A stretch of 63,890 bases of DNA, filler included, from Hausera hauseri (GCA_046269625.1; 11 parts of 11 records of this genome joined end to end with filler, not necessarily neighbours in it), one strand, 5' to 3'. Shown: positions 1 through 42,749, counted from the first letter of the whole stretch. The notes: generated by a model not told the origin, from the sequence alone. Program-made: numbers and translations.

Positions 1-224
1 TGTAGTTCCGTGTTGATCTATCTGTAAATAGTTTTGGAATTTGGGATCAGGACGGTTACGTATTTCTGAAAAAATCCGTCGATGCTAAGTCGGCTCATTT
101 TCGGGTCGATCTGATTATTTACTAATCTGAAGAAGAAAACATAAAGATTAATCTAAAAACAAAGTGTGGTTTTAAATCAAAACAAATTCTTTGTTTGATG
201 ACAGAATAACCTGATCTGTAATTG

Positions 225-863
225 TCAGGTTATTTTATCATAGGGGTCTACAGGGTTTTCCACCTCCCTTAATTCCCATTCTGTATTTTTAGGGCGTTTA
301 GAATAATAATTTTTGGTAACTAACCGAACAATCGCAGTTAATAAAATGAGAACAAATGTTGACGATGCGATAATGGATACAATCGGTAATGCGCTTAACC
401 ATATTGGTACTTGTGTGGTGGTTGGAGTTGTTGTCATCTTCGATATTTTCATACAATGTCGATCTCGTACTGATTTCGCCCAGGGTATGTACCGTAATTG
501 TTTGGTTATGCTTATTCTCTGTATATACTTGTACTATGTAATCGGTTGTAATAATTTATTATCTTCCTGTTTTTGTATCTCTTCGACTGTTGGTTTCTTT
601 TCCGTTTTAACAACTTCTAATCTTGATCCACTCTTCCGAATTCCGTATACATCTCCTAGCGTAGATTCATCGTGCCACCATTGGGTGTGTACCCTCGGCA
701 CATAAGAAGCAATCATCGATAATGCTAGAACTATCTGAACGTATGATATTGGCCTAGAAACTATTGATGTAGTTTTTATCTCGCGTTGGCGTAGGTTGTA
801 ACGTTTATTGGGCCGTCTCTGTCCTGACGACTCTTTGTACCGACACGACTTCTTCCTTTCCAT
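225..863 (-). pseudogene. Small type-I membrane protein at the env position, downstream of a Gypsy integrase
   Basis: ORFs 534..863 and 225..452 share a frame, with one stop at 534-536. They give RYNLR, a signal-like ISYVQIVLALSMIAS, a Thr-rich stretch, a TM segment LPIVSIIASSTFVLILLTAIV and a tail ending YDKIT. Confidence 0.55.
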
Positions 864-1610
864 TTTTATTGATATATACTGTGGTTGGTGTAACTCTGGT
901 AACTTCGTACGGTCCTCTGCCTGTACGAGTCAATTTTAATGAGGTGCCTTTCCTGACTACTCGATAATGTACATAAACCAAATTTCCTTGTTCTAAACAA
1001 TGTTGTTTCGCTTTCCTATCGTATTGCTTTTGAACTGCTCTTGATATTCTTGAGATAACTCCTTGGCAATTTTCCAACATTTCTGTAATCGCGTCTGTAG
1101 CACTTCTGCCAAATTCTGTTCTAAACATTTGGGATTGACTGTATACGGTGTCATTCCTAAATCTGTGGGTAACACGGCTTCGCGTCCGTATATCATAAAA
1201 ATGGTGTAAATCCTGTCGTCGGGTGTGGTGTGGTATTAATTGCAAATTGAGTTCCTTCTAAAAATTCGTCCCAATATTTCTGGTCCTTAGCTACAACTGT
1301 TGATAATATGCGTATGACAGTTGCATTCATACGTTCGACCATTCTATTACACTGAGGGTGATATGCGGTAGTTGTTAGTCGTTCGATTTCAAATATCTTG
1401 GTAATTTTCTCGAAAAGTTCGCTGGTAAAATTTCTTCCGCGATCCGTTAATGTTTGGTCGGGTGGTCCGTATCGGCAAATAATTCTTCTTACTACGGCTT
1501 CTGCCAGGGTTTCTGCCTTTTGATCAATTAATGCTGTCAACTTGACAAAATGAGTTAATCGATCAATAGAAGTTAAGATATATTTATTGTTCTTGTGAGT
1601 CGTAGGACTT
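805..1610 (-). pseudogene. Ty3/Gypsy integrase core and GPY/F C-terminal domain; frameshifted, N-terminus missing
   Basis: NKYILTSIDRLT, LTDRGRNFTS, TTAYHPQCNRMVERMN, NTTPHPTTGFTPF and GRGPYEV motifs. Confidence 0.93.
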
Positions 1611-1887
1611 GGATTGTCGACACAAGTACCGTCGAGATTGTCTAGAAAAATTGACGTTAGAAAACAAGAAAACCACGTGTCCTGTGTGTAGGGCAGAAGC
1701 GACGGACTTGAAGTATTACTCAAACGGCAATTATACCAGAGTGGACAGAATAAAACCCCATTTTAGCTACGAGTTGGAGACTAATCCTAAAGAGAATCAA
1801 ACCAATTCAAGTTCGGGACCCAGCTTAAGACAGCGTATGGATTTATTACGGACAAACCGTTCAGACAAACCTCTCCTGAAGCAATAG
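1609..1887 (+). pseudogene. C-terminal half of a RING finger at the 3' end of an LTR element
   Basis: LDCRHKY.RDCLEKL...TCPVCR. The first CxxC is lost at the junction near 1610. Confidence 0.7.
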
Positions 1888-1915
1888 GCACATCCGAGGG
1901 TGCTGCTCAGGGAGA

Positions 1916-2857
1916 TGTTGGAGAACAAAAGTCATAGTCAACTGCAGTAGAGACCAATATAGTAGCTGGTCTATTGTTGAAATTAATAGCAAGATTAAGC
2001 AATAACAAAAGCTGTAAATAATATTAATGTGAATAATTTATGTATATAGCAATAATATAAACACAGAAAAAGCAAAGTAAACCGTTGTAAATGATATTAC
2101 TGTTATAATAACGGTATCATGCAATAGAGAAATGGCAAAATTTTAAATAGTCAAAATGGCAAATTTGTACATAGCGAATTAGCTGATATATAAAATTGAT
2201 TAAACAGAAGATTGTAAAAATTCAATATTACTAGAACGAAATATTAACTAGTTTAATTACCATTGATAAACTACAAATGTCAAAATTTCGGAGATATTAA
2301 TTATTGCTCGGACGAATTATCGGCATTAAAATAAATCAAATCATTGAAATTGAAAGAAAAACGTAGGCGAATAGAAATTAGCTGAGCTGATAGAGCTATA
2401 TAAGGCTTACAAAATCGTGGCAAAATCAGAAAAATTTTTGGAGTCTAATTTAATGCGTATTATTGTGTTGAAATTAAAGAAAATCCAGAAGACTGTTCCG
2501 AACCGACAGACGTCGATTTACGAATTTGAAAGACTTTGTAACGTATATATTTGATCGATACCGTGTAGAATCAATTGGTAATTGTCTTATTAATATAATC
2601 TGTTGTATTTAAATTTCCTCATAGTTTTTCCTTCGCCCCTTAAGGGTGGTTAGAAGTCATTAAGGTTAAAATCTACATGTAAACTATATAGTTGAGAGAT
2701 CTTGAAATCGATAGCACAGGACCGCACGCATATACTCGCACAGATTTTAAAATCGTTAAGGTGCATTCTGTCTACACGATAACGGTAGACCGAACTGCAT
2801 AGCAAAATAAATTCGAGTGAAACTATTGTTATATAGTGGGAGACGTATAGGGCGACA
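1916..2857 (+). repeat. Probable LTR of about 940 bp
   Basis: Non-coding AT-rich block. It starts TGTTG after a short purine run (AGGGAGA) and ends CGACA, 2 nt before a PBS. The 5' boundary is inferred and no second copy is present. Confidence 0.6.
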
Positions 2858-2859
2858 TT

Positions 2860-2877
2860 TGGCGACCCTAGCAGGAC
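2860..2877 (+). promoter_or_regulatory. Primer-binding site, probably tRNA-Arg
   Basis: TGGCGACCCTAGCAGGAC follows ...CA-TT. It resembles the tRNA-Arg PBS (TGGCGACCGTGACAGGAC type) of 412/mdg1-like elements. Confidence 0.75.
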
Positions 2878-3258
2878 AGTTTGTACATTGCTAGACTTTA
2901 CTTATCAGAGTTAAATAATTATATACAGGCGAACAGCGCCATTACATCGAGTAACTGGACTTATTCAGAATCGGAATTTAAAATTTGGGTATATAGGCTA
3001 TTTTTACGGGAATAAGTAAACAAAACTTAATTGAGAACAAACATTGATAGGTAAGGAATAAACCATATATTAAAAGACAATTCACCTATATGTGAAACGC
3101 TTAGAAATATATACAGCGAAACCGAAAAAGTAGATAGACGTTCAAATTCCGAGAACAGAACTCAACTAGACGTCACCGAGCATAATAAGCAATTTACAAT
3201 CCCACGCAAAAAACCTAAACTGAACAAAGCAAACGCAGAAATAAATAACGTAAATAAT

Positions 3259-4320
3259 ATGGCAACAGATAACCCTCCAGTAGCGCAGAAACTAGATATA
3301 TTCACTTTTGACTCTCTAAACCTGCCGGCATATGACGGAGACCCGGACGGGCTCAATGAATTCTTGAGAACTTATAAATGACATGCAGAAGGTGCTAGCC
3401 TCACTCCTGAAGTAATGATAAAACGTTTGTCATTATATTTGAAAAATCTAGCCGCAGATGCTTATAGCGAACTCACTAATATGGAAAAGAAATCTTGGTC
3501 CTCCCTGGTAGGAGCATTAAATCGCAAATTGTTGCCGACCGTAACGCCGTAACAAAAGCTTATGGCATTTCAGAACCGAGTACAGCAAAAGGGTGAATCG
3601 GTAACTCAATTCGCATTTGCGTTAAAGAAGCTTGCTAACAGTTACATTAGTACATTAAGGATAGCCAACGTAGCGAAAGACAAGACAGAGGCGGAACGTG
3701 ACTCCGCAGAGAAGGCCTCACCACCGGATTTAGATGTTATGATGACAACGCAACTAATAAATGGTATTTGGTCGCTAGACTTAGTTAAACAGTTGATTTC
3801 AACTAGACCCAAGAATTTTGGAGAAACGTTGCGATTAGCTCAAGACTTAGAAATGGCGCTAGATAGATACGCCAGGCATGATATAAACGATAGAAACAAT
3901 GATCACAATGACCTTAATGATAGAAATCGCAACAATAATCACGGAAGAGATGACGGACGATTTACAAGTAACAGAAATTATGGACATAGAAAGAATAATG
4001 GCGGTTAAAGAAATGGCAGAGGTGGTAATTATACTAATACGAACAGATCCGACTCTAATTGGGATAGGAGTAAAGGAAACTATAAAGGTCCGAATTATTT
4101 GAATCAAAACGGCGCTAATCGAAATAATGATAACAGACGAAGTACGGACATCGCGCAAGGCGTGTCAATCCAGTATAACCAAAGCACAAATAGATCTACG
4201 TCACCAGTAAACGAAGACGGTATACAAAGAGTCGGCAGAAACGGAAACTTAGTTTGTTTTACCTGCGGCAAAGAAGGACATATTTTAAGGTCATGTCCCA
4301 ATCCGCGTAGCGTTTCATTT
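3259..4320 (+). pseudogene. gag: Ty3/Gypsy-type Gag: capsid, Asn/Arg/Gly-rich linker and CCHC zinc knuckle, with in-frame stops
   Basis: One frame from ATG 3259: LPAYDGDPDGLNEFL, YLKNLAADAY, QQKGESVTQFAFALKKLA, CFTCGKEGHILRSC. Confidence 0.9.
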
Positions 4321-7300
4321 ACTGAACCAAATAAGACCAGTATGATTAGAATCAATGAAAATCTAGAAGCAAAATATGGTGTTTGTGGGGAAACAGGAAC
4401 TATCATTGATATACAGGACTTGAGAAATTTTTTAGATGATCAGCCGGATACTATGAACTTACAAATTTTGATGACTAGAAGAGAATACGGAGATAAGTTG
4501 AGATTATTAGAAGTATACCATAGCTTAGCAGAACCAGAAACTGAATATGAACACACGATAGCCCATAAATGCAGTGATATAACACGAAGAGTGTTCCGAC
4601 AAACAATAAGCCATCTGATAAACCAGGCACATCTACGGCAGTCGACTTAGACGCAGAGCCTGAATTTACAGTCGAAAAAGTAGCTAAGCTTACTGAGGAC
4701 GATGTAGAAGAAAAAGAATTTATGGAACCATTAATACTTAAAATTGCGAAGAATAGAGGCCGTAGCCCTTTACTAAAAACCAAACGTAGGAGTCGTTCAC
4801 GCTCCAAAATAACCAGAGAGAAAATTGAAGAAACGGAAAACCCGAACGTCGTTGTAGGAGGCGTCACGGATTATAGTTTGGATACACCGGAAATTGGTTC
4901 ACATACATCTACCGGAGTACCGGAACCGATAGAGCTAATTAATGACTTTAACGAGATCTGCCCACTTCTCATTAGTGAGGAAGAGACAACAAATAAGGAC
5001 GTTTTCGATCCCAAGAAGTGGAAAGTCCGACACTCCTGGAAAAATGCGAATGAATTAAGGAAATTGAAAAACAAACTTTATGAGTCAGAAATCTTACAGT
5101 GTGATCTAGAAAGGCTTAAACAAATTAGCGAACAGGTGGATATATCCGGAAAAGTACAGCAATACGCTGAAAAGTTATATAAAAGTTTAAAACTGCGTCG
5201 TGAGGGAAAGTTTGCTGAGGCAATCGACCTGGAACAATCCGAAGAGGTATCAGCCGAAACGTTGTTAAAATGGAAGCGGGAATTAGAATTGTGGATTAAA
5301 AGCGGGTTAGAATTTTCAGAAGGATGGAATAAAAACGAAGATAGGTTTGACGTAAAAGTCACTAAAGCTCAGACATTGCTGTCCACTTTAGAAGCAAACC
5401 CGAAATTAAAGAGAGCAGCTCGCAGTTTAGAACGTATGATGGATGAAATTCGCCTTGAAATGATTCGCCGGCTCAGGGAAAAACCGGTTAACCATCGAAG
5501 TAATATCGACTTAGAAATATTGGGTATAGACCTAGTAGATATTCCTCCCTTAATGGAGATGATTGAATTCACGTTCGCCGTACCTAGACAATATACGAAT
5601 TTAGAGAGTCGTATTAAAATAGAAAATGAAATACAAGCACAGATTTATAGTTTGAGAAATCGAATTATGTTCCCAAACAACGAGGATACTCAATATACAA
5701 TTAAGACTTGTATCGTAGAATGGGACGAGTATAGGGATGAGTTCAGTTATGTCGGTCGAGTTATGAATTTCCTAAAAGCACCAGATGATGAATTAGAAGA
5801 TGCTTATAAGATGCTAGATAAAACTATAATGGCGAAACCTGTAATCGCAAATCAACTGTCGGAATGGTCCGAATTAGTAACGCGACTAACCAAATTAGTA
5901 GAAGATCGTAAAACAGAATTTCCGCAAAGCGAGCCAACGGTGAAGAAGCAACTATAAGAAAGTGCACACGATTTAGCCACGTTGCGGATAGAAATAGACA
6001 TCCGTACTCAATTTGAAGCGCTACGACGACTAAAATTTATGAAAAAGGAACGGGAAGCGTCGATGATGGAGGAAATATACAAATTGATCGAAGAGACGAA
6101 CTTTACGGAGAAACGGAATATGATTTACAATGTAAATTCAAAGTTAAAGATTGTCCGGCTAGAAGGGATTCAATATTTAACCGAGAAACCAATCGACAAA
6201 ATTTCTGTACCAGACATTAAAATCTTGGACATTTGTCCAGAATATCGAGATACGTTAACGGATGCAATAAGGTTTTTACACAAACCTCAAGAATGGATGG
6301 CCGGATCAGACCAGAATTTCCATACCAAGTTGATAGAAATCGGAAACGACCCACATTTTAGCTTTCAGGAACACAAGTTTGTAAAGAAATTGTCGGATGC
6401 AATGGACCCTGATTCAAAGGTTATTAGTGGAAATGGCAGAAACCAGTGATGAACAGATGAGGCAGTTGATGCCCAAGATACAGAAAGGAGAAGAAACATG
6501 TATCAAGACAAAACAAAGAGAGACAAGGTTAGATGAAATAACAAGAGCTTGGAGTCTATCGAAACAAATATGCTTTTACCGAATCCGAGATTAAGAATAA
6601 ACGAGAATTTTTACAAAGATGGCAAAAAGATGTGATTCTTGAATTGACAGATTATCACCAGAAACGGCTGGTTGGCCCGAACGAATTGGGCGAATTACTG
6701 AAAATGATTCAGTATGCCTGTGGAAATGGACTAGGTTTCCAAACTACGCAAATGAAAGAAATACAACCTAGATTAAAGGAAATTCGGGAAAACATTCAGA
6801 GCCAATGCGGCTTTAGTGGACTATCGACTCCCGGATGACGGAAACGAACCCAAATGGTATGCATACTTCGACGAAATACTTGCCGGAAAATCTATGACTC
6901 CAGTACAGCTAAACGAAATAGAAACATGTCCGCAGGACAGGAGATTCAATGTGGAGATGCTACTAGATTCAGCGCTAACTGAAGAAGATTTGATTGAGCT
7001 AATTAACGTAAACATTACTGAGAGTAAATTAAGACAACTTATTCCAACTTTAACTACACTATCTAGCGAAAACACGATTTATAGTACGGTGCCGAAACTT
7101 TTGATAAGGAAGTACGCTAAGATCTTGAGGGCTAAACCTGCGGTGACGATAAAGGTAATGGTGTCATCCGAATAGATGGACGAAAAAGAATGCAAGTTGA
7201 CTACATATTCCTACGTAAAAAATATAAGAGAATGGCTAATAAACAATCGTGGAACGAACGAGTTAAACTACAGATTATATTTTAGAGGTAGAATACTCGA

Positions 7301-8092
7301 TGAATTAGAACAACTAACAGACGTCGGGATTATTCCTGACGAAACAAATCGGATAGTAGTAGTAATAACTAACGAACAGACAAAAGAAGAAGCTACACGT
7401 AAAGCCAAAACAGAACAATGCGTAGGACAAATCATGGGAGTTCGAGACGCTGAACTATATTTTGAGTATTTGCAAACGGACAAAGATAATGAACAATACA
7501 ACGTAAATCTAGTACCACTAAGTGAAACAACCATTAAGGCTTTAAGACTGAAACGTCTAGTAGACAGACCTAGAAAACTGCGAAAAGAAGTGGATTACAA
7601 CGGAGAATTAATTAAAGAATTGATACAGATGTCGATTCCGACTCTTAGCCCAGATAACGAGGAATTAGGCGAGTTAATGAAAAATTTAATACGAATTGTG
7701 AATTATTCTAGCTTTCGAGGGGATGTGTTAAATGATAAAGAAAAGATAATTTTAGATGCAGCCAAATGACACGAAGTTTGCCTTTCAAACTATCGAAAAG
7801 TAATTTAACTGATGAATCGGTAATCGAAAAGATCATGGTAGGAAATACGAATAAAGAACTGAGAAAAGTATTGCTATACTTAGTAGTCAAAATAAATCCT
7901 AATCGAAAGAATGAAATCAATCGGGCTATAAGCTTAGCACGGAGAGCAGCAAGAAGAATGCCTTGCGAAGTAAATTGGGCGAGACTATTTGACAAGGAAG
8001 AAGGCAAACGAAACAATAATAAACTCGACGATATGTTACGTAACCTGACGGCGACAAACGCTGGAGGTCGAAAAATGAATCGAATTGGCTAA
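4321..8092 (+). pseudogene. Large charged, predicted alpha-helical region of unknown function in place of pol
   Basis: Chain of abutting ORFs broken by stops and frameshifts; the part from ~5460 on is conserved in the paralog at 25657-28340. I saw no D(T/S)G protease, YxDD or DDE motif. Confidence 0.7.
7143..7366 (+). other. Internal ubiquitin-like (beta-grasp) domain without a terminal GG
   Basis: VTIKVMVSS..EKECKLT..YVKNIREWL..YRLYFRGRILDELEQLTDVGI..RIVVVI parallels ubiquitin [20 protein letters not shown]. The paralog has KLYFRGKILD. Confidence 0.65.
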
Positions 8093-8097
8093 TTAGT

Positions 8098-8670
8098 TTG
8101 CTTACCTTAATGATGCTAATCAAGCATATAAGTGCGGTAACCGTCTATGATTGCGATAAGTTTAAACTAGGACAGAGATATTCGTTAATGGATCTGGAAG
8201 TATGCCAGGATGCCAGACCGCACAAATTAGGAACGACAGAACAAAGTTACTTCCTATATCAACAACAAGAATTGATATCGTTAGACGGAATGGAGTGCAT
8301 GCTGAGACGATCGCGTAGTATCTTCCACTGTGGACTAATACACGGACATTCCTCCATAATTAAGCCAACCACTCCGCTTATCCCAATGAATTTAGAACGC
8401 CAACACTGTAAACAAGCTAAAGAGAACGGAAGGGTACAATGGGACAGTATGCAATTAAAAATGCAACCAGGAAAGATAATCAGAGCATCTAAAGTAGTAG
8501 CTGGAAGGTTCGATATGCATAGCGAACATTGTAATGGAGCAGAATACGATACCGGAAAAGGATTAGAACCAAACGTGGTAGTTGTGGATTTCTATGAATC
8601 AGAAATGCGATCACAAAAGGTAATGTTCCATAGTGTAACTAAGTTATACACTGAGAATTAAAAATGCCAT
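8098..8670 (+). pseudogene. env: Chuvirus/jingchuviral-like (class III) fusion glycoprotein, N-terminal part
   Basis: Signal peptide followed by VYDC...YSLMDLEVC...ECMLRRSRSIFHCGLIHGHSS, the typical N-terminal pattern of chuviral G. Confidence 0.8.
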
Positions 8671-9461
8671 TTTTAAAATTAAGAACAGACACATGTAATA
8701 AGTGTAAATATTTAGAGGAAAAGTCAGTTCAATAGTTAAATAAACTGGTGTGACTTAATGTCAGCTTGCTATTCAGTTATTTGTGGCATGTGCTTGTTGT
8801 CCTATGTCAGTTATTGCAAATCCATCAACCAACCAATTGATAAATGACAACTTTATCTGCATTCTTGCAAGCACAAGCAAAATGACAGATTTAATACAAA
8901 ACGACAGATTTAATACAAAACAGTTGGTGTAACAAGGACACACAAAAATTTATCTCATGAAGAAAAAAAGGCAATTCCTGTAAATCCAATAACAGCTCCC
9001 ACCATGTCAGGATATCATAAAAAACTCACTGGAAAAATAGATATTAAACAACAAGTTGGGCATAAAAAACATAATTTTACAGATACGACAAATACTGTAG
9101 CAGCATTGATATGGCAAAAAAAAGAATTATGTCACGATATAAAATGTGGCATCGGTTTGACACAGATCATTTTAGAAGTATGCAGTAAATCAGATAAGTA
9201 AGTAAATAAATAAATAAATAAATAAAATCATCTCAAGAGGCACCGTCTTCAATGAGGAGGGGACAGAGACTTTTCAGAGTTATAACCTCCAACATCTAAA
9301 CCATAGTCCTCATCATTCAGTTCTTCTCCACCTCTCCTCCCTCTGCTGTCCTCTTCTTCGTCGTCCTCCTCATCCTCTTCTTCTTCCTCCTCCTCCTCTT
9401 CCTTGAAAACGTTCTGGTCCTTTCGAGTCGTTCTGTCCCTCTTGGGCCCTTTGCAGATCTT

Positions 9462-9561
9462 NNNNNNNNNNNNNNNNNNNNNNNNNNNNNNNNNNNNNNN
9501 NNNNNTTAATTAATTAANNNNNNNNNNNNNNNNNNNNNNNNNNNNNNNNNNNNNNNNNNNN
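9462..9561. other. Artificial contig-joining spacer. The others are at 14436-14535, 19428-19527, 25557-25656, 29957-30056, 38047-38146, 42205-42304, 48722-48821, 54098-54197 and 59808-59907.
   Basis: The same 44N + TTAATTAATTAA (stops in all six frames) + 44N block occurs ten times. Adjacency across spacers has no biological meaning. Confidence 0.98.
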
Positions 9562-9909
9562 CTGGATAAACTTTCTGGTGCTCTGCATAAATTAAACGTG
9601 GATTTAAGGTTAAACGAAACGACCGTGCAACAATACTCAGTCGATTTACCAGCGCAAAAAACGAAACTGTTTGATTTTATCGGTCGCGAAATGTCTCATG
9701 TACCCGATGGATATGGTGGTTTAAAGTGTCGACTGAATATCGAGTTACAAGAATACAAGGAAAAAGCCGGTATCAAAAGCCCGATTTGGCGTGTAGCTGA
9801 AGGACATTTTATTTATCAACAAATTTTGTTTTACCGTTCTTCTTCTTCTTTTATTAACCCAATTAACGAGTATAAATATACGTGTAATTTTAATATTGGC
9901 ATAAGAATA

Positions 9910-10377
9910 ATGATAATAAATCATGTACAGATTACCTTAACAGACGAAAATGCTTTTGTACCGAGACGTGTTACAGCAAACAGTGCAGGCTACGATGTGT
10001 TTTCCAATGTCAATACGACAATTCCTGACAGCACAATCAATTGCATAGCGACTGGGATTCGATTGGCAATTCCACCGGTTACTACGTACAACTTTTGTCG
10101 AAAAGCGGACTGGCAAAGCTCGGACTTATGATTGTGGGCGGCGGCGGATTTACACTTTCGTGGTGAAATTAAGGTGTTGCTGGGAAACCAATCCGGGGAA
10201 CCGTATGCTTTTCCCAAAGGCAGTGCAATCGCACAAATTGTTTTTCGTCGCTGTGAAGAGGTGGAATTCAGTGTAATGTCACCGGAACAATGAGGATTGT
10301 TTTGCGTCAATGAATCAAGGCGAAATGAACGCAAAGAATTTGGCTTTGGTGATATGGCCAAGACCATCTGTGTTTAG
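9910..10377 (+). pseudogene. dut: dUTPase, frameshifted
   Basis: SAGYDVFS, ATGIRLAIP, SKSGLA, FRGEIKVLLGN, KGSAIAQIVF and a C-terminal R..FGFG motif. Confidence 0.92.
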
Positions 10378-10451
10378 TTATTGTGATAATAATAATAGTT
10401 AGTTGTTTTGCTTGTGTTATAAACAAAAAATTATTTTGTACGAGATAAGGA

Positions 10452-10899
10452 ATGGCGACAGCATTTATAGATATTGAAGCTTTCCAAGATGATAATTGCC
10501 GGTACGTGATAAAAGAATTATGCACTATAGACGTCTGTAACATTTTCGAACCGCTTGTATACATATTCAAGCCCGGTATTGTATGCAAATACCTGACGGA
10601 AAAAGCGAAAATTACAAATGGATTTTCTTTTTGACATCGTCATGGACTTCAATTTTCTGTGCGACATGTAGTACGGTAGAGATTTGTGATCGTTTTAACA
10701 TTGAAAATACAATATTTTACATTAAAGATCAAATTGGCGGAGAAAAGTTTACACAACTCCATTCACACTTTCAAGAACATCGAACAGCTCGCTCACAATA
10801 GTACCTTACAATATTAGATGTCCGTATCGTGATAATGGACCGCATTGTGCTTATAAAAAATGTCTACGGCTTTGTATTGATTATATTTTATGCAAATAA
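10452..10899 (+). pseudogene. Maverick-associated DnaQ/DEDD-like exonuclease
   Basis: FIDIEAF...YVIKEL...YIFKP...HGL, and a C-terminal C...HCAYKKC motif. Confidence 0.7.
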
Positions 10900-11003
10900 A
10901 TAAATATATTTCTCCGTATAAGTCAGTAGAATAATTCAAACACTATAAATACGGGTAGGAAATAATATTAATCATCATTGAAATAGTTAATCAACTGAAG
11001 CAA

Positions 11004-11456
11004 TTGGAAAATTTTGATGGATTATCAATTTCTGACGTGGTACGATGGTGGCAAGTACGTGATAGTGAGCTGATTGCAAGAGCAGTAAATGAATTTGGAT
11101 TTACAGAAGATTTAGCATCAATAGCATTTTTGACAGCAACAACAGATTTTAGCTCTATAGAAAATTTAATTATTGTGCTAAATCAAATGTACATTCACCG
11201 ATTGTACAATACAAATTACTTTGATACTGTTGAAAAGGTACGCAGTGAATTAACGAACTTGAAAGAGAAAATAATGGACAAAGTACGAGACTGTCAGTTT
11301 ACTTGTGTGCTGTGTAAACAAAGAAAAGTGGATACGGTATTCTTAATGTGCGGCCATCTCGTTATTTGTCAAAGGTGTTCCACCATCAAAGTAACCCGCC
11401 AATGTTTAGAATGTAAATGTGCTATAATGGAAATTGTACATATTTATTACGAATGA
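11004..11456 (+). CDS. UBA-like plus C-terminal RING (IAP/MDM2-type) E3-ligase-like protein lacking BIR domains
   Basis: SELIARAVNEFGFTEDL...FSSIENLI, then a coiled segment, then CVLC...VFLMCGHLVICQRC...CLECK...HIY at the C-terminus. The start is called at TTG. Confidence 0.75.
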   Translation: MENFDGLSISDVVRWWQVRDSELIARAVNEFGFTEDLASIAFLTATTDFSSIENLIIVLNQMYIHRLYNTNYFDTVEKVRSELTNLKEKIMDKVRDCQFTCVLCKQRKVDTVFLMCGHLVICQRCSTIKVTRQCLECKCAIMEIVHIYYE

Positions 11457-11850
11457 CGTCTTCAATAACGGAACAAAACTGTGTTATTGGCTTCCATGAC
11501 GTGGAGGTAATTTTATCTAGTATGTACCATTGTGATATGACACAATACTCTCAACATAATTGTCTATTGTTTACAATGAAAACAAACCTGTATGAACAAA
11601 TTTGACATAAATTTGGGTGAAATTTCATTTTACGTTTGTCCTATTTAAAAAATGTCTTTGGAAAACAATTCAGCAGGCGACAGATCCGCGAGTCTCTAAA
11701 AATTCAATAGTACAGCGAATATTCTTCAGAAATTCCCTGTTGTATAATGGATACAACTTACATTATCTGTGCAACGTTATTCAATTGCCACTGATGCAAA
11801 GAGTCAAAATTAAACCAGTGAAATATGGTTTATTGGTGAAAAAATAATTT
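11453..11850 (+). pseudogene. Small Cys/His Maverick hypothetical protein
   Basis: ATG overlaps the RING stop (ATGA); C....SQHNCL motif; frameshifted. Confidence 0.4.
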
Positions 11851-12544
11851 GGATACAATGAAAGACACAATTAAAAAAGCTGACAGTGATTTGGCGTTGA
11901 GTAACGATATCCGAGATACATCATCGATTTTTTACAAATAAAATATGGCGAAAATTGTCAGTTCACATGGTGGAGAAACAGTAGTAGTAGAAAAAGCAGT
12001 TTTGACAATGGAAGGAACTAAAGGGTACTTGACACTGAAGATCAAAGGATTCAAGGAAAGGAGCGACGTCAAATCCCCAATATGAAAAATGGGGAAGTTT
12101 CCTATTATTTTGCTGACTTACTTTGTGTGCTTTTGTGATTTTAGGTTTTATCCGATCAATAGATATATGTATTTGTGTTACATATTTTGTTTTCTCGTAT
12201 AAGGTTATTGTTTTACTTTTACTTCTATCTTACTTAATAATAATAGGTTAAGTAAGTAACCGAAAACAAAACACAAAAGCCACTGAACAAAGTACATTGT
12301 TAACACTGAAATAAAATGATATATAAAAGATAATTGTCCATAATTGTCAAATTATCCAGACCAGATTGATTTGCCTGTATCTTATCTGATCTGACGCCAC
12401 CGAACGCGTTTTATTTCAACCTCCAATATCCATACGTCTAACTCTTATTTCGCCCCACCAACTTTCACTTATCATCGTTACATGACAAAGCGACATTCTC
12501 ACTAGTTATATATATATATACAGCTGGTGCTCAATTGATTATGC

Positions 12545-14435
12545 CAATATTGCAGCCATCAAACATTTTCTGGTAACGTGCCAAGTCGAGGTAATGCAGC
12601 TCTTACATCCGCAACTTGCTCAGGTCCAATACCACTTGTCCGATGTAACTTGGCCAGTCCAGAGCGACTTCTTCCCTGTTTAACAGCACCACAACCAATT
12701 CATCGGCAATGTACATTGACCGCCGAAACTGTGCTTTACTCGTGTACGTGAACAACCATTTTTTGTTATTGCATAGGAGTACATTGAGCCACTTTTCCAG
12801 ACTCTCCACTGTTTTTTCGTACAGAGAATTGTTTTTCAGCTTGTAGTAGTTCTTTTCGAACTTTATACAAGCTACGGCTCGCTTCACCGAATTTCCATCT
12901 ATGTACGCATTGAATATTGGAGCCTGAGCAAATCGGATTGCACGATTCAGCTGTGTGACGCGTATATCGAGCTGCATGTAGAACAGTATCAAACGCCAAT
13001 GGACCAAGTAATTCAGCTTCGGTTCATGCGTCGTGAGCAGTTTTTTCAATTTTGAGCCTGGCGGACATTGGTTAAGTGGTGCGACCGGTAAATGATCCAA
13101 AACGTCATCAGCTCATCCGGTACCACAAGATCGACCTCCATCAGGTATCCGACTGAGCCTGCCATGCCTGCTCGCGATCGGTTGAACATTATTTCGTCCA
13201 GATCTTGTCTGTTGACTACCCAATCAAATGAACTGTGCGGCAAGGGTTGCGAAAGCGCCCAGCTGTACAGGTTATTGATATAAATATACAGCAGTGCTGT
13301 GATATCGGTAGGACTGACCTGATGCTTGTTGACAAATGTCATGCAGCCGCGAATACCGACATCAAACACTCGGTACATTTCCGGGTCTTGCAGCAACTCA
13401 GTTTGTCGATCCAGTGATATCAAAGCTGACACCCAACTCATTCCCGACCTATCTTCCGCCAGCGTTTTGGTCCGAAATGCTTCGAACACGTCGGCTAATA
13501 AATACACGTCCAGTTTAAGATACTGGAGCATGTAATCCAACATGTTTCTACAGTTCAGTTCTGTGCAAGATTCTTGTGCCATCCCATATTCATCTTTTGC
13601 GATAACTGTCCATCGCGGGGGTAATTCCTCTGCTGTCCGGAGTGTCTCATATGATGTTGCAAATCCGTAGGGAAATATGCCTTTGCTGCGTGCAGTATGT
13701 GCAGGGAACAGCGTCAGTGCTATAGGCACATATGGCAAGGCATTTACCAGCTTTGCTAATGATTCATTGAGAAACTGCAATGAATCAAGGAAGTGTACCT
13801 GGAATCGGTTTGCTCATGCCGAAAGCGATAGGCATTTTTCCTTTGTCGTTGGGATTATGGAGAGTTCTCAGTGCAGAAATCCGTTTATTGTCCATTTAAA
13901 AATATGGTGACAATCATAACCCCTGAATTTATGAAATACTACCGGTAAGAATGGCCGAAAATTCCTTGCCAAATTGCATGAATTACATGCGGCTCCGAGA
14001 TATCGACTGACAAAATGATCATGATCCGGTATGAACCGTTCCAGTGCATGAAACGTTAATATTTTGTGGCACAGGTAACATTCATCTGCGAATTCAAACA
14101 TCAGGTGTTCAACTTCATCTACTCTACCAGGGTGCGATTTCAGTTTCAACTATGGTTTGAAACTGGTGAAAGAAATAGCGTACACAATTCCATCCGTGGA
14201 AAACATAATATTGAGGTTGACCTGCGGCTTTTATTGAGGCAACCAACATACCGACGGCGATTAAAACATGTTTTTGGTCATATATATTATGCCGTGGTAA
14301 GATAGCTTCGATATCGGCATATACTATATATGCCGGACTGTCTGTTTTTGACCAATCAGTGAACCTGTGTTCCTGTTTGACGGGCATGACATACATTGTG
14401 GTTCCTGACTAATTTTGTCTGCACACAGTCACATG
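12545..14435 (-). pseudogene. polB: Protein-primed DNA polymerase B with an endonuclease-VII-like insert; truncated and frameshifted
   Basis: YADIE, CYLC..DHDH..YLGAACNSCNL, FHKFRGYD, KGIFPY, YLKLDVYLLADVFEAFR, NNLYSWALSQPLP, KLKNNSLY and IGQVVLDLSKLRM. It ends before YxDTDS. Confidence 0.93.
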
Positions 14436-25656: not shown

Positions 25657-28600
25657 AATAGTCGAACGACTCAAGGAAAAGCCGGTCAAAGAACAAAATG
25701 AAATTGATCTAGAGATGTTAGGCATAGACTTAATAGATATTCCACCCTTAATGGAAATAATAAAAATCACTTCTACCGCAACAAAACAATATGCAAGCCT
25801 GGAAAATCGGATTGAAATTGAAACCGACAAAGATTGCGAATATGCAGTCTGAGAAATAGAATTATGCAAATAAATAATGACAAAACACAGAAAATAATTA
25901 TGGCTTATATCCTAGAATTCGACGAATATAAAGACTAGTTCGATTACACCTGTCGGGTCATCGATTTTATTAAAGGTCCAGATGATGAACTAGAAGACGT
26001 TCATAAAATGTTAAACAAGGCAATATTGGCAGAGCCAGAAGTCGCTAATCAGTTGAAAGAATGGTCCAAAGTGATAACGAGGTTGAGTAAACTGGTAGAA
26101 AGTCGAAAAAAAGAATTTCCAGAACGCGAGCGTACAGTAAAGAAACAATTAGAAGAAAACGCACGGTATTTAGATACGATGAAGCGGAGATTGACATCCG
26201 GACCCAATTCGATTCATTACGTCGATTAAACTTTATGAAAAAGGAGCAAGAAATGAAGATGCTGGATGATATATATAAAATGATAGAAAAAACAAACTTC
26301 ATACAAAAACGGAACTTGACTTGTGACTTTTATCCAAGATTAAGAAAGGTCCGCTTAGAAGAAATCCAACATTTAACAGCAAAACCCCTCGAGGATATAT
26401 CGGTTCGAGATCTGGAAACTTTAGACATTTGCCCAGAATATCAGTCGACCCTCGAAGAAGTAGTGACGTTCTTACACTACCCACAATAAAGGATGGCCGG
26501 AACAGATCAAAGGTATCATACCGAAGTGACTAAAATAAGGAACGACCACCATCTTAATTTTGAAGAGGCCAAGTTTGTAAAAAGATTGATCAATGAAATA
26601 GACCCAGACGCAAAATTATTAATGAGATATATGAATTAGCACTGCTGATGGTGGAAGTGACAGAAATTAGTGACGAAAAAATAAGACAGTTGTTGCCACA
26701 GATACGACAAGTTGAAAAAACTTGCCTTAAAACGAAACAGAGAGCGGTAAGATTAGACAAACTAACTAAGGAACTCGAAAGTTATAAAAATAAGTATGCC
26801 CTTACAGAAACAGAAAAGGCTGATAAGTCACAATTTGTACAAAAATGGCAAAGAGACGTAGCTTCCGAGCTAACTAATGATCAAGAACAAGGATTTATAT
26901 CAGCCGAAGAATTATGTCAGTTGCTAACAGTATTGCGCCAAACTTCCGGAAACGGACGTTGTTTCCAAACTATGCAAATGGTTACAATGCAACAAAAACT
27001 ACGGGAACTAAGAGAATCAATAAAGGACGTGAACTTAGTCCGGCCGTTAAAAACTCCGAAGATTGATTTCGGACTACCAGAAGACGAAAACGAATGGACG
27101 CGTATCTGAATTCAATAATCGCCGAAAAGCCGAAAACTCCCGTGCACTTGTACAAAACGAAGACGTGTCTACCAGATCAGAGATTCAGTGTGGAGATGCT
27201 TCTGGATTCGGCATAAACTGAAAGGGATCTAATTAAGTCAATCAGTGTAAACCTTACTGGATATCAATTAAGGGAGTTAGTCCCCACCTTAACAAAATTA
27301 GCTAGCGAAGGTACGATTTATAGCGCTGCACCAAAACTTTTAATCAAAGAATATGCTAAATTCTTAAAGACAAGGCCCGAAGAGACAATTAAAAGAAGAG
27401 TAACGTCTGACTCGATGGACGAGAAGGAGCACAAGTTTACTACACATTCCCTTGTGAAGGATGTAGCACTGTGGTTAAGGAGTAATGGTCATACAAATAA
27501 GCTGAACTGTAAACTTTATTTTAGAGGAAAAATATTAGACTAACTGGAACTACAAATAGAAGTTGGAATTATTCCAGACGAATCAAACCGGATAGTGGTA
27601 ACTATTCCTACCGACGAGACAAAAGAAGAGGTCACAAGGAAGGCGAAGACTGAACAATGGGTAGGACGGATTATAGGAGTTCGAGATGCAGCAATGTACT
27701 TCGAATACTTGCAAACAGACCAAGACAAGGCAAAATATAATAAGAATCTAGTACCAACCAGTGATACCGCACCGACTGTAACGAAACAGAAGCGTCTGTC
27801 GGTAGGCTGCGAAAGACACGATAATAAATCGACTATAATGGAGACATGATCAAAGAATTGAGAAAAATATCCATACCGACCTTCAGTGCACATGACGAAG
27901 AACTGAATGAACTTATAAAAAATTGATACATATAGTAAAACACTCCAGCCTCGACAACAATATGTTAGACGAGAAAGAGAAGGCTATATTTAATGCAGCC
28001 AAAGCCATGAAAAATTTTCGATGTAAATTATCCAGAAGTATCTTAAGCGATGAAATGATAATCGAGAAAATTATGGTAGAGAACACTGTGGAGGAATTAA
28101 GAAAAGTATTGCTATATTTGGCTGTTAAAACCAATCCATTCCGAGATAATGAATTCAATAAGGCCCTTTGCTTGGCGAGAAAGGATGCCAGGAAACTGCC
28201 CCGAGAAGTAAACTTGTCCAAATTATTTGAAAAAGAAGAAAAGCGTCAGAATAGGCCCTTCCTTGGAAATAATAAATTTGAAGACTTGTCCCGAAACGTA
28301 GCCGGAAATAATAGAGGAAACGAGCCAAACTGGTTAATTAACTTCTTAACCGTTATGATGTTAATACGACAAATGGGTGCAGTTACCGTGTATGACTGAG
28401 ACAAATTTAAACTTTGCCAAAAATACTCATTACTGGACTTAGAAATGTATGAAGATGCGAGACCACATAAGCTAGAAACAAAAGAAAAAAATTACATGCT
28501 GCACCAACAACGCGAACTAGTTACATTAGACGGAATAGAATGCATGTTGCGACGATCTCGCAGTATTTTCCATTGCGGATTGGTACATGGGCATTCATCA

Positions 28601-29956
28601 GTAATCAAGCCGACAACCCCACCAATTCCGATAAACTTGGAACGTCAGCATTGTAAGCAAGCTAGAAAGACTGGAAGATTAAAATTGGATGGTATGGAGT
28701 TGGAAATGCAACAAGGAAGGATAATGAGAGTATATAAAGTGGCAGCTGGAAGACTAAATATGCACATCGGACATTGTAATGGTGCAGAATACGATACTGG
28801 AAAAGGGCTAGAGTTGAACGTCGTCGTGGTAGATTTTTACGAAACCGAGAAGCGCCTACAAAAGGTAATGTTCCATAGCGTTAATAATCTTTACACGGAA
28901 AACCAGAAGTGCCACATTCAGGATGGCACATGCCCCTTTCGAAGCTCCGTGGTAATTTGGGAACCCCCAGCAAAAACCGATTGAAATTTTATCAGAATTA
29001 AAGAACTTAAGTTTAATGAGACGACATGGAAACGATTCATAAGTAGCATGGAAACTAACTCTAAAACGCGAGAAGATGTGGCCAAACAGTCCACACCTAC
29101 TATATTAATTTCCAATACTCATGGATTGAAATTTGTGAAAAAAGATGCACTCACACGATACGATGTCATAATGTACGCCACCAATTATGAAGCATTCTTT
29201 GTAGCTGAGACGAAAGTAAACGCCAGAACGTTTAAAATCGAGACTCAAGATATTCGAATTGAGGATTATTTGAAAAACAGAGACGACTATTTTTACTATA
29301 AAGGACAAGCTGAAATAGCCGAGTTATATCACAAAATGATAACAAATGACTGCAAATTGGACTTGGAAGTCATGCGGACTAAACTGGCTTTAACATATGC
29401 TAACCCTGAATTAGCATGACCAATAATCCCAATGAAAGAAGGCGTTTTCGGACGAGTAACCGGAGAAGTCCTACTGACCTATGAATGTGAAAAGAAAGAT
29501 GTACCTATTAATGTGGAAGAGAAGAGGTGTATACAGGAACTTCTAGTAATATACCAAGACGTTTGAAGGTTAATAACACCAATTACTAGAGTGTTATTAG
29601 CAAACTCTACCCAACCGACAATTTTGAGAGACTGCAAAACCAGCCTGAGTGAACCAATATTCAGACGTAGCGAAACCGATTGGATAAGTTTACCAAACGG
29701 CGGCATAATTACGCCACCGACCAAGCTAACAGAAACCAACTTAATAAAAGGAATAACCGATGATAAATTTGAAGATACTGCCGCAAAAGAGATTTACCGA
29801 CCAAAAAAAGTAGAGGCGTTCCGACAATTTCTCACTTTTCCCCGTCAACGCACACATGAATTAAACAGAGCGATGCATACAATATTATAGGACTCGCGTT
29901 ATCAAGCGAAGCGGGAATCATTATTCGGTGTCAACTACTACCGAAAAGTGACTACG
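25657..29956 (+). mobile_element. Second diverged copy of the helical region-UBL-chuviral glycoprotein polyprotein element
   Basis: Collinear homology to ~5460-8670, e.g. IDLEMLGIDLIDIPPLME, CPEY, VRDAAMYFEYLQTD, ELRKVLLYL and SRSIFHCG. Confidence 0.9.
28330..29956 (+). pseudogene. env: Chuvirus-like glycoprotein ectodomain of about 540 codons with in-frame stops, cut by the contig end
   Basis: VYD, FHCG..HGHSS, C..QDGTC....IW, LYHKMITNDC, GEVLLTYEC, CIQEL, PITRVL, IY.....AFRQFLTFP. Confidence 0.85.
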
Positions 29957-32188: not shown

Positions 32189-32541
32189 ATTTCTCTTTAT
32201 CTTTCTATCAAAATACAGTTTGTTGTAAGCTTACGCAGTCATGAACCGATAATGAACCTGTGTTGTTAATACGCAAATCCACACGACGTGCGGTTTTTCA
32301 AATAAACAGGGTTCTAAATTTTTTAATGTTGCATACAAACCCTTTTTACAACGTTTCTTTTTATCCTTACCAATTACTCCCAAAAAGACACGATTGTATT
32401 TATTTCCTCTTAAATTTTGACCTCAAATACAGCGCAACGTTTGTTGAATGCTCCAACAATGTACTTTGTCCAAATATTTCCGACATTTTACAATCATACC
32501 ATAGCCAGTACAGTTCCAGTTTCATTCGGCCATGTGATGGA

Positions 32542-34010
32542 ATGGACAATTTCATGAATTCTTTGATGAATTGCATCAATCAGGATTTGATCGACAAGGC
32601 ATCACAGGACTTCTGCGAACAATACAACACTAAATTCAATCAACAGAAATTGGAAAAGGAACTGTTTTCAGTGTCCCGTAATCGATACGACCTACTGCCG
32701 TTCTACGCACGTCTCGTAGCGAATATCAGTCACATAATGAATGACGTCGGTACGGAGGTATCGTCGCTGTTGCTCGGCGAATTGAAGTGGCATATTCACA
32801 AGAAAATTCAACCAAATCTTGAGTCGAAAATCAAAAAAGTCCGATTTATCGGCAAACTCGTAAAATTCAACGTGTTGAAGAAAACTGACACCATGGGCTG
32901 CATAAAACTGCTACTCCAACAATTCAAACATCACAATATCTACATGCTCTTTACCTTGTTGGAGACATGCGGTCGTGACCTGTATCGATCACAGCCTCGT
33001 CGTTTACGGACGAGTGCCTATCTAAAAATAATGATGCGCAAAGCATCGAAAAGCGTTCTGGAAGCAAAGTATCCAACGATGATCGAGAATGCGTATTACT
33101 ACTGCAATCCACCGGATAGCACTGAAAAATTTTACGATGTCGATGAATTGACAACTGAAGAATAACTCCTAAGGAAATTATTGCACGTCGATCTGAACAA
33201 GCATAACAACGACAAAATATTCAAGATAGTTCGGAAATTCCAATGGGATAACAGACAGCTCATGAAATTCGCCATGCGTACATTCACTGAGGTGTGGCGA
33301 CTTAAATACAACAATGTACCGTATTTGGCCAGTGTCCTGGCTATATTGACACCTTACCACGAAGAATTGGTTGTATCTGTCATTGATAATGTGATTGAGG
33401 AAATACGGATAGGGATGGAGATGAATGATCCAAAATATAATCAAGACAAAATTAGTATTTTTTGTTGTCTTGGGAACTTCTATGTGTATAAATTAATCAG
33501 TGCTGCAGTAGTTTTCAATGTCCTTTATTCTCTAGTTTCTTTTGGAGTTTCTCTTGATAATTCTGTTGAATCACAACTCGATTTTCAAGATAATTATTTT
33601 CGAATTAACCTCATCCATACGTTACGTGAAAGCTGCAGTCAGTATTTTAAAACCGGTGGTATCGGAAAAAAGCTTGATATCTACCTTTTTGTATCTCCAA
33701 CAATACTATCTGTTTAAAAAACCTTTGGAGACATTTGTTGCTTCACAGCCAGAAGATGAAGTAAATGCTAAAAATCTAAAGGTCCATTTTCTGTTCTTAT
33801 CGAAGGTCGGGTTTTTGACCTGATCATAAGTCTGAGATCAAAATGCAAAATTTATAACACATTTGAAGAAGTTCAAGCAAGCATTGACAAATTCGAAAGT
33901 GAAGGCATTAAGAAATTGCAATCGAAGTCGATATATCTCGGTGATGCACCAAGTAATCAAAACCAGGGCTTACAAATTATTGAGGAGATTGCAGAGGATG
34001 AAGCTGATTA
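32542..34010 (+). pseudogene. UPF2: UPF2 (regulator of nonsense transcripts 2), MIF4G-2 and MIF4G-3 region, intronless, with a stop and a frameshift
   Basis: NCINQDLIDKA..DFC, DLLPFYARLVA, VRFIG.L.KF, LLETCGR, MIENAYYYCNPP, IEEIRIGMEMNDPKYNQ, LYSLVSFGV. In-frame TAA at 33163-33165. Confidence 0.92.
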
Positions 34011-37500: not shown

Positions 37501-38046
37501 GCTGTTATCCTGGTCATCATCAATGAAGAATGCTGGCTTGAGATCAGAGATATGTACATTATGAGGTTTGTTCTTGCGTAAAATAGTAGCGGTGTGAAAA
37601 CAAATATTTAGTAGTTTGTAAGGGCCAACGTATTAAGGCCGAAACCCAGACGGTGAAGGATCCTTCAGCCATACAAATATGGCTGAGTATATGTCTTCTG
37701 GAATATAAGATTTGCCTTTATTTAAAAGACGGCAAAAAGCGTTTAAGTTTACCTCTACAAAGTGGGACTGTGCTGCACGAATGGCTTCATCTGGTGGACT
37801 TTCATCCAGATTGGAAAGCTCAAATTGTGCACGAATTGGCGTCCCAAAGTAAGCTTCAGCCGGGGCACAACCTGTGGTAGTGGATGGCGTGTTGCGCCAA
37901 CCAAGTAGGACAAGAGGAAGAATCGAGGTCCAATTACGATTGTTGTTTGCCAGAATTTTTAAAGAAATCTTCATGGTGCGGTGAAATCTCTCAAGAAGGC
38001 CATTTGCTTGGGGATGATACGGCGTCGTATGGAAGTGGGCTATCCC
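34560..38046 (+). mobile_element. Mag-like Ty3/Gypsy element, copy C: UBL-Gag-PR-start of RT, then an inverted 3' end (37155-38046, minus strand)
   Basis: RLRGG|SDPNP, CFYHMRFRKEARKC, FLIDSGA, SPWASPLH, YRPCGNYRQLN. The minus-strand part matches 24430-25320. Confidence 0.93.
34860..35093 (+). other. Ubiquitin-like domain of 78 aa ending RLRGG, in frame with Gag
   Basis: LQLSFFIFNNN-QHITAIKAP-NSTAQLLYTFLSSSL-NFYFTHRG-ITVHPVDSLLSF-VIHLMLHFRLRGG. The GG codons are at 35088-35093. Confidence 0.82.
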
Positions 38047-38146
38047 NNNNNNNNNNNNNNNNNNNNNNNNNNNNNNNNNNNNNNNNNNNNTTAATTAATT
38101 AANNNNNNNNNNNNNNNNNNNNNNNNNNNNNNNNNNNNNNNNNNNN

Positions 38147-41100: not shown

Positions 41101-41583
41101 CTGTACTCTGCTCTAGGCTCTCTAGTCTCTGCCGCATTCTCCCTGCTTTCTGCTCACTGCTCTCTTGTCTCTCTTTTCTATTCTCTACTCTCTGTTCTCT
41201 GTTCTCTAATCTCTGGTCTATACTTTCTGCACTCTGTTCCCTGCTCTCTGCTCTTTGCTCTCTGCTTTCTGCTCCCTACTCTCTGCTCTTTCCACTCTCC
41301 TCTCTGCTCTCTTTCCTCTGCTCTCTATTCTCTGCTCTCTGCTCTCCGCTCTCTGCTCTTTGCTCTCTGCTCTCTACTCTCTTCTCTATGCTTTCTGCTC
41401 TCTGCCCCTTGCTATCTTCTCTCTGCTCCTTACTCTTTACACTCTGCTCTCTCATCTCTGCTCTTTCATCTCTGCTCTCTTCTGTCTGCTGTCTGCTTTA
41501 TTCTCTCTACTCTCTGTTTTTTTCTCTCTGCTCTCTGCTCTCTACTGTCTACTCTCTGCTCTCTTCTATCTGCTCTCTGCTCA
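38147..41583. repeat. (CTCTGCT)n heptamer microsatellite, near-perfect at the left end and degenerate further in
   Basis: Directly visible. It generates the spurious SREQRAE and LSALCSL ORFs. Confidence 0.97.
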
Positions 41584-42029
41584 CATGAATAAGTATTGAT
41601 AAATATAAAACTCTGATGTAATTTCTGGGGCCGAAGACTGTTTTTTTATCTACTCATCACTCGAATTTATTTTTTGAAATACAAAAAAATTTATTTAATT
41701 TAACTATAATATTAATCTTGTAAGTACCATGGGGCATCTTCATAACTGCAGTGTGTTGTCAGTTTAATTGGCATTGTCCCAATCCTTATGACCTTTTCCC
41801 TAATGATGATTTCTACATGCAGACAAAGGAGTGTGGAATATAAGTCACACTAAAGACCATAGTGTCTCTCCCAACCCCATGGTACATTTCTCTATTTGAT
41901 GTCTATACTTAATGTATATATGTCTATATACTTTAATATTTTTATTATTGATTCATATTATTTCATATACTTTCTGTTGCATTCACTCGTAATAGTAACA
42001 TGTATGATTGATGTAATCATGCAGGCAAG

Positions 42030-42204
42030 ATGTCAGTTAGACGTCGTAGAATGGCTGTATCTGAAGCCTTGAAGATTATTTCGATGCCAGATAGTTCAGA
42101 CGACAATGACGACATTGTCGACGGAGATGAATCCAATGACGAATACTACATCGCAGAGCAGAATAAAAACGTTGATGATGCCATAGATGTCAAAAACAAT
42201 ATCA
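42030..42204 (+). pseudogene. Possible piggyBac-type transposase N-terminus
   Basis: MSVRRRRMAVSEALKII followed by an acidic D/E tract, typical of PGBD N-termini. No catalytic domain is visible. Confidence 0.35.
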
Positions 42205-42749
42205 NNNNNNNNNNNNNNNNNNNNNNNNNNNNNNNNNNNNNNNNNNNNTTAATTAATTAANNNNNNNNNNNNNNNNNNNNNNNNNNNNNNNNNNNNNNNN
42301 NNNNGGGGAAATTTTACCCATTTGAAATTTTCCCATTGATTTTTCCCCATGTTCCCATGGTCTGACGGAGTTGCAACAGTGTCCATTGTAATCGCCAACA
42401 TCGATTTACCCTTTGTACGCATTTTCTCAGCGCTAACAGCATGTGTCTCGTTACGCGAGGCGCATTTCCTGTTTTGCTTCTGCCTCTTCTAGCGTCTCTC
42501 CCTTACATTTCTCAAAGCCGCGCCGCTATTAACTTTTGCTCACCTCGTCACGGGCTATCGATATCACCTGGTCCGAACCTCTTCACTCGACCTCATTTTC
42601 TGCGGGGCGGGGTCTCCGACTATTTTTAGCGAAATGTTCAGAATAGCCAATCAGGTGGGGAAAACTGGTCGCCGGACCAATCAAAGCTTGTTTTGATAAG
42701 TGGTTTTGAGCTGACACTTCTACCTACTTCAGTGGGGTAAGTTGTGTCA

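Follow-up and report, generated by a model that had tools for sequence, protein, structure and literature searches.

Errantiviruses with the order GAG-ENV-POL and an env of the HSV/gB type are described from Platyhelminthes, Bryozoa and Nematoda (Chary and Hayashi, PMC13524379). In Burro/GYPSM1, the giant gypsy-like elements of planarians, env sits in frame between gag and pol in a polyprotein of 4,873 aa, with a ubiquitin-like domain before env and RING-type and other ubiquitin-related motifs as accessories (PMC6431247). The bdelloid LTR elements Juno and Vesta carry a DEDDy exonuclease as ORF3 after pol (PMC5408684). As to decoding, CAR-YYA is the readthrough motif of tobacco mosaic virus (TMV), 3' stems 8-12 nt from the stop being common stimulators (PMC3159437), and SIRE1 has an in-frame stop before its env-like ORF with pol/env readthrough (cited in PMC2194720). 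Tandem LTR-retrotransposons in plants share internal LTRs (PMC11899658).

Here we analysed a stretch of 63,890 nucleotides, filler included, from Hausera hauseri (GCA_046269625.1), called the window in the following. The locus at its start belongs to a family with the layout LTR-gag-X-env(gB-type)-PR-RT-RH-IN-membrane protein-ORF-RING-PPT-LTR and a length of about 17 kb, which is summed from anchor distances, no single contig spanning it all. With the errantiviruses of PMC13524379, whose flatworm elements have 12-18 kb intervals, the family shares the Ty3/gypsy pol and the gB-type env before pol. In contrast to what we see here, the main text of that paper mentions no RING, small ORF or accessory gene, and we found neither an FN3 membrane protein behind the integrase nor a readthrough site nor an ORF of the exonuclease-RING type described in it, its supplements being covered by a term search. 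An env in frame inside the gag-pol polyprotein is common to Burro and the family. Burro exceeds 30 kb and contains MATH, BCL2, BIR and ankyrin; the Hausera hauseri family has about 17 kb, LTRs of 0.7-0.8 kb and one CCHC knuckle found, and its scanned fragments, which are broken, gave no such Pfam matches and a weak ubiquitin match (E 0.019). Juno and Vesta have intact catalytic residues and no env; the family here has an env, and its exonuclease-like ORF shows an altered motif I and a RING at its end. Likeness to TMV-like and SIRE1 readthrough consists in an in-frame stop with CAR-YYA, a downstream stem and a 3' accessory ORF of an LTR element; the difference from the TMV-like cases is that the stop is UGA and not UAG, and that the predicted extension would couple a RING to a membrane protein, in a gypsy element of an animal.

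The env-before-pol layout is already published, and the locus itself is a case of ordinary decay. What appears to be new is the post-integrase FN3 membrane protein together with the readthrough-type stop, of which we found no description in the open-access literature, the supplements of PMC13524379 being a source that may bear on it. In the open-access literature, no gypsy FN3 protein downstream of an integrase and no CARYYA readthrough in a retrotransposon were found; the search for gag-env-pol elements with RING or extra ORFs returned only PMC13524379, and the one combining readthrough, RING, exonuclease and flatworm returned nothing. Taken as a whole, we consider it probable that a gypsy-type retrotransposon of ~17 kb has left its 3' end at the locus, decayed and partly inverted, and that another copy of the family likely went into the 3' LTR of this remnant; the gene order in the family is gag-X-env-pol-membrane protein-RING.

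Gene order and proposed polyprotein of the family

The window consists of separate contigs strung together by N-linkers, and only positions 1-9461 (G000:C368815) are contiguous; their features are collected in Table 1. The linkers, of the form N44-TTAATTAATTAA-N44, stand at 9462-9561 and nine more places. Because they join unrelated contigs, neighbourhoods past position 9461 are not real. On these other contigs we noted fragments of a dUTPase-like protein, an IAP-type RING and a DNA polymerase B (Polinton-like, 9562-14435), a broken, intron-free MIF4G-domain stretch that is UPF2-like and possibly a retrocopy (32245-33717), tandem repeats with periods of 7/14/21 nt and longer (38000-48200), and, on the minus strand, an ORF of 355 codons with a DXD glycosyltransferase domain (49223-50287; PF04488, E 1.8e-13). 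A satellite on a contig other than 1-9461 dominates the repeat matches of the whole window.

Table 1. Features of the contiguous stretch at the start of the window, with positions counted from its first nucleotide.
Position	Strand	Feature	Basis
1..218	-	start of last ORF (putative pseudo-exonuclease-RING), inverted; first ATG 98-96; runs off contig end	natural copies
127..150	-	pyrimidine tract + CAG, splice-acceptor-like, upstream of first ATG	loose pattern
145..212	-	predicted extended RNA stem-loop, starting 12 nt past stop	folding, 93% of cells paired
219..227	-	UGA-CAA-UUA: stop codon (227-225) in CARYYA readthrough-type context	copies compared
228..533	-	C-terminal part of membrane protein: final part of last FN3-like domain, then TM helix and tail (predicted)	natural copies, fold prediction
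533..534	-	junction of ~870-890 nt deletion; most of ectodomain lost in window copy	non-self loci; X1 record 268-606
534..804	-	integrase tail, internal signal-like segment (ISYVQIVLAL...), ectodomain start	natural copies
805..1607	-	integrase core and C-terminal part, N-terminus missing; stops and a frameshift	profile match and natural copies
1607..1607	.	inversion-type junction, 1-nt overlap	natural-copy comparison
1607..1915	+	3' end of RING ORF (second half of C3HC4 RING), continuing into PPT	profile match
1908..1915	+	polypurine tract (PPT), shortened relative to other copies	comparison of copies
1916..2100	+	first 185 nt of 3' LTR, subtype B	copies diverging at 2100/2101
2101..2857	+	whole 5' LTR, subtype A, from TG end; ~14 nt missing near 3' end	family LTR matches
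2860..2877	+	primer-binding site (PBS) TGGCGACC...	sequence
3259..4400	+	gag with CCHC knuckle, broken by stops	profile match
4400..8043	+	X region, not clearly assignable to any family; ubiquitin-like match ~7210-7365, weak (E 0.019)	profile search
8044..8660	+	gB-type env (PF24664), N-terminal part, truncated; unrelated sequence beyond	profile match

Contig searches with the integrase side, env, the RING and whole contigs gave 246 loci, which correspond to 192 distinct stretches. Over these, gag precedes env in 5 of 5 cases, env precedes the integrase in 15 of 15, the integrase precedes the membrane protein in 26 of 26 and the RING in 10 of 10, and the membrane protein precedes the RING in 15 of 15. 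The only exceptions to this one order among the searched contigs are tandem-type junctions. Indeed, env, protease (PR), RT, RNase H (RH), integrase (IN), membrane protein, RING and 3' LTR lie on one contig in L109, and gag through IN on one contig in L111. The pol order PR-RT-RH-IN is of the Ty3/gypsy (Metaviridae) type, with best database RT-RH matches 38-46% identical. In L004, the N-terminus of env is joined straight to the PPT-LTR of the family.

The env in front of pol is of the gB type: the window copy matches PF24664 at E 3e-16, and a natural env ORF of 653 aa does so at E 1.9e-41. A search for env homologues gave none at 1e-10; by eye, unaligned, it resembles the env of a Schmidtea errantivirus. 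A second X-env fragment of the same retrotransposon family, 67% alike, is found on a separate contig at window 25657-29956.

Four intervals were tested for their frame, namely those that separate env from the ubiquitin-like domain on one side and from the protease on the other, the one between protease and RT, and one inside the integrase; they are multiples of three with scattered indels. The gag-X frame counts come from 1-3 copies per interval, and the same frame is seen in L198. From the integrase into the signal-like segment the frame is kept in 30 of 41 copies, and in a natural ORF of 539 aa the integrase continues into the ectodomain. On the frame intervals we rejected a programmed frameshift at the boundaries of env, PR and RT, and a conserved stop before the protease was likewise discarded, most true-site copies having Tyr and a stop appearing in 2 of 24 rows. 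Separately, we observed that about 18 of 40 integrase copies share a one-base loss at alignment column 425, apparently in a T run, which would be either repeated slippage at this site or the mark of a lineage whose integrase is defective and which is copied in trans.

An independent metagenome contig, L246 (Ga0209893_1000075), provides an intact distant relative, 28-40% identical to the Hausera hauseri family. Its open frame of at least 3,012 aa holds env, PR, RT, RH and IN and closes with a signal-like segment followed by ectodomain and TM-like segment, with the DEDDh ORF separate. Judged from its sequence, L246 has the same post-integrase membrane-protein layout, and the homology of its ectodomain to that of our family has weak profile support (E 0.002). 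In its segments 2-9040, 9207-9875 and 9917-11305 we noted two protease-like DTG motifs, an ORF of 222 aa that belongs to no known family, and the DEDDh ORF, which lacks a RING. From the frame counts and this one intact relative we infer that gag through membrane protein would form one polyprotein of ~4,100 codons, in which env and the post-integrase protein would each be entered via an internal signal segment.

The membrane protein and the last ORF

The original prediction had described a 'mini' membrane protein behind the integrase. It proved to be a deletion remnant: of the 41 non-self membrane-ORF loci, some of which overlap on the same contig, 39 hold 770-888 nt extra at 533/534, and the remaining two, which represent a single contig, show a different deletion of their own. 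One record of run X1 spans 268-606 without differences, so that the deletion at 533/534 is present in X1 as well. At full length the protein has about 480 residues, is of type I and in frame with the integrase, and has predicted fibronectin-III folds. For a natural ORF of 399 aa the predicted fold consists of beta-sandwich domains and a helix (pLDDT 67, pTM 0.38). With this model Foldseek gave E 6e-8 to CNTN1 FN1-3 at a low global TM-score, and the single-domain comparison with fibronectin FN3-6 gave Z 10.3 and rmsd 1.8 with 78 aligned. Matches in the ESM Atlas fall into FN3 clusters at 0.87, which we treat as a lead only. Sequence homologues of the membrane protein were found neither at E 0.001 nor among PDB sequences. 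For the post-integrase protein we predict a series of FN3-like domains that is followed by a single TM helix with a short tail.

The last ORF, in its natural form of 761 aa (L198), joins an N-terminal part to a DEDDh-like region and a C3HC4 RING, and P0121, an intact database relative of 870 aa (E 3e-218), shows the same join. The DEDDh assignment is supported by weak Pfam and PDB matches, by Atlas clusters at 0.91-0.94 and by relatives that match RNase_T clearly. Motif I carries Asn in place of the expected Asp (NY[GREV] or NCG) in 38 of 43 matches, the catalytic D-x-E being lost. The last ORF appears, from these sequence comparisons, to encode a catalytically altered DEDDh exonuclease fold followed by a C3HC4 RING. 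The predicted structure of the 761-aa ORF had a pLDDT of 36 and was unusable, and scans of the locus with P0121 and P0132 found nothing. We also observed that the RING ORF continues across the PPT and terminates within the first LTR bases (…GGEML), and that P0121 does likewise.

The stop codon before the last ORF

We compared 77 copies, which come from two clades. In 74 of them the membrane protein ends in a stop codon (TGA in 70, TAA in 4), and in 62 of the 77 this stop is followed by CARYYA, with the RING ORF in the same frame; the copies are close kin, so that retention of the motif partly reflects relatedness and the counts for stop and stem are inflated. The integrases of the two clades are 71-77% alike. 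Downstream of the stop, a stem of 25 pairs was drawn from single-sequence folds and scored in 36 copies selected for an intact motif, where it is 93% paired against 34-58% when slid. Three of its pairs change on both sides between the two clades, by one event each. The pair-type measures do not beat shuffles (295/500 and 292/500 for two of five measures), RNAalifold alone gives 9 pairs at -2.67 kcal/mol, and the fold z averages -1.46, with 11 of the 36 copies below -2.

On these grounds, we regard readthrough at UGA-CAA-UUA into the exonuclease-RING ORF as evenly balanced between true and false. Some ribosomes, aided by the 3' stem, would read through the UGA into an ORF of ~865 codons, and this would yield a low-abundance, membrane-anchored ubiquitin ligase in which the FN3 membrane protein is joined to the RING. 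Spliced RNA probably also makes a soluble form of the RING ORF, and both routes may operate.

A close contender, to which we grant a little under an even chance, is that the RING ORF comes solely from a spliced sub-genomic RNA with an acceptor ~100 nt past the stop, CARYYA and the stem being incidental or serving RNA export or splicing. An acceptor-like site, by a loose pattern, does precede the first ATG in 50 of 59 copies, with the ATG just 3' of it, and a GTRAGT word accompanies it in 40 of 59. L246 has neither CARYYA nor a RING, and its exonuclease ORF has its own ATG with an acceptor-like site 2 nt upstream, which speaks for splicing as well. However, an exact CARYYA after an in-frame stop is expected only about 1 in 400 times from base composition, and yet it is kept in both clades; the commonest hexamer variant, CAACTA (16 of 77), still conforms to the motif; and the frame is open from the stop to the ATG in most copies. 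As to the donor-like word, in the window it reads GTAAGT (~117-123, minus strand; column 108-118 of A3) and lies 4-5 nt past the acceptor-like CAG; it occurs in both clades, as in a micro-exon or a recursive site.

Junctions at the locus

Near 1610, the original prediction had seen a minus-strand integrase without its N-terminus abutting a plus-strand RING without its first CxxC, and both are there. The integrase is an rve core (E 7.6e-11) cut just upstream of the DIVGPLPT motif, and the RING matches zf-RING_2 (E 9.8e-5) at profile positions 20-44 only. Natural copies of both genes place the inversion-type junction at 1607, with an overlap of 1 nt. The order IN > membrane ORF > ... > RING > PPT > LTR, which had been derived by undoing one inversion, is indeed the natural one on 10 of 10 contigs with both IN and RING. 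Instead of one inversion, the minus-strand IN/membrane-protein piece and the plus-strand RING could stem from two different copies, by antisense nesting and deletion, and this we see as a realistic possibility, though not the favoured one. The TM segment of the window clusters with L112 (support 1.0) and its RING with L109 (0.94); since the nearest relatives differ, two copies may be involved, and a search for the reciprocal junction gave 0 exact matches. Against this, the family is a mosaic, with L184 being window-like both at the post-stop/TM segment and at the RING (88% and 86%), and both breakpoints sit where a single inversion of ~4.3 kb would put them.

Downstream of the RING, a purine run, one LTR (1916-2857), a PBS and gag had been expected in this order. 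The purine run, the PBS and the gag with its CCHC knuckle are indeed present, the window PPT being 5 nt shorter than the usual family form, but the single LTR did not hold up. When 1916-2857 served as bait against the genome contigs, the family matches fell into two sets. In 8 of 29 non-self loci the matches start at ~2101 with TG/CG, preceded by host flank or by the family PPT, and natural copies such as L025 and L028 match 1916-2100 and then diverge exactly at 2100/2101, as do further copies. Scored directly after the PPT (n=29), the 1916 stub is seen in two copies (L025, L128) and the 2101 head in three (L004, L014, L018). Stub and head show no relatedness to each other (score 20 against a background of 18-42). 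The supposed LTR is thus a 185-nt stub of subtype B followed by a complete subtype A LTR, and the proposed sharing of one LTR between the pol-carrying 3' end and the gag-env 5' end is not supported at this locus; two different LTR heads abut here. LTRs with TG...CA ends, a PPT and a PBS are present in the family, and the solo LTR L029 carries a 4-nt duplication. The PBS presumably resembles those for tRNA-Arg; one exact pattern search gave no matching tRNA gene. As further observations, most of the 29 copies differ so much in the initial ~200 nt of the LTR that no likeness is recognisable, the PPT and the 3' part of the LTR being conserved, and at the 3' end of the LTR lies an inverted repeat (TTGTTATATA...TATATAACA; e.g. 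L012 310-347) that could form a U5 hairpin beside the PBS.

A join exactly at an LTR terminus is what an integrase makes, and we therefore read 2100/2101 as the point where a gag-env copy is nested in the 3' LTR of a related copy, a reading that we hold to be quite probable. The original prediction had set a nested insertion or a random chimera, with an integrase from an unrelated family with different LTRs, against itself; nesting is indeed the better reading, and the integrase is of the same family as the gag-env unit. The far end of the nested insertion was absent among 12 matches to the subtype-B continuation, and a pattern search for it produced 7 hits, compared with 16 in the control, and no hit lay at an LTR.

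That two tandem copies share one hybrid LTR here, made by recombination, is unlikely, even though real single-LTR junctions exist in the family. LTR ends were recognised in 16 of 51 stretches ending in the RING, and 6 of these 16 continue into a PBS; L129 and L235 were added by BLAST, so that junctions of the type RING>PPT>single LTR>PBS or gag are known from L030, L117, L123, L129, L137, L143, L198 and L235. These internal-LTR-internal junctions are of the kind described by PMC11899658. However, they hold one LTR of ~690-830 nt, whereas the window has 942 nt with two unrelated heads, which fits nesting, and the second head begins precisely with its TG end, a join that homologous recombination would not produce. 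The single-LTR junctions on other contigs are either real tandems or collapsed LTR pairs; the age and decay of several of them lower the likelihood of collapse.

We think it more improbable still that one or both junctions (1607 and 2100/2101) are assembly chimeras. This is a high-copy family in a highly fragmented assembly (869 Mb in 909,086 contigs), and no X1 record bridges 1607 or 2100/2101 at 99% likeness; X1 holds just 0.34 of the words, and gaps in its coverage are uninformative. The overlap of the joined pieces, however, does not exceed 1 nt at 1607, and at 2100 there is no evident one, so that there was nothing for an assembler to jump on, and X1 contains the 533/534 deletion. Of the two arrangements originally offered, one very large element with env before pol or a bipartite pair with shared LTRs, the former agrees with our data and the latter, a gag-env unit and a pol-RING unit favoured by nothing more than the window's own layout, is ruled out by L109 and L111: env and IN are colinear on 15 of 15 contigs at a distance of ~4.4 kb, one contig has both gag and IN, and one has both env and the 3' LTR.

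The 3' half of env-before-pol elements has barely been described so far. In this invertebrate gypsy element it contains accessory genes in the style of complex retroviruses, namely a second glycoprotein fused behind the integrase and a pseudo-nuclease-RING. As a tentative and rather doubtful extension, one frame of ~4,950 codons would make capsid, fusogen, enzymes and a second surface protein; stop readthrough of the plant-virus type would give a receptor-like transmembrane E3 with a dead RNA-binding nuclease domain, likely removing host surface or defence proteins; and the family may integrate unusually often as tandem arrays. If UGA-CAA-UUA is read through, it would represent a short, testable recoding signal and lead to a transposon-encoded membrane ubiquitin ligase.
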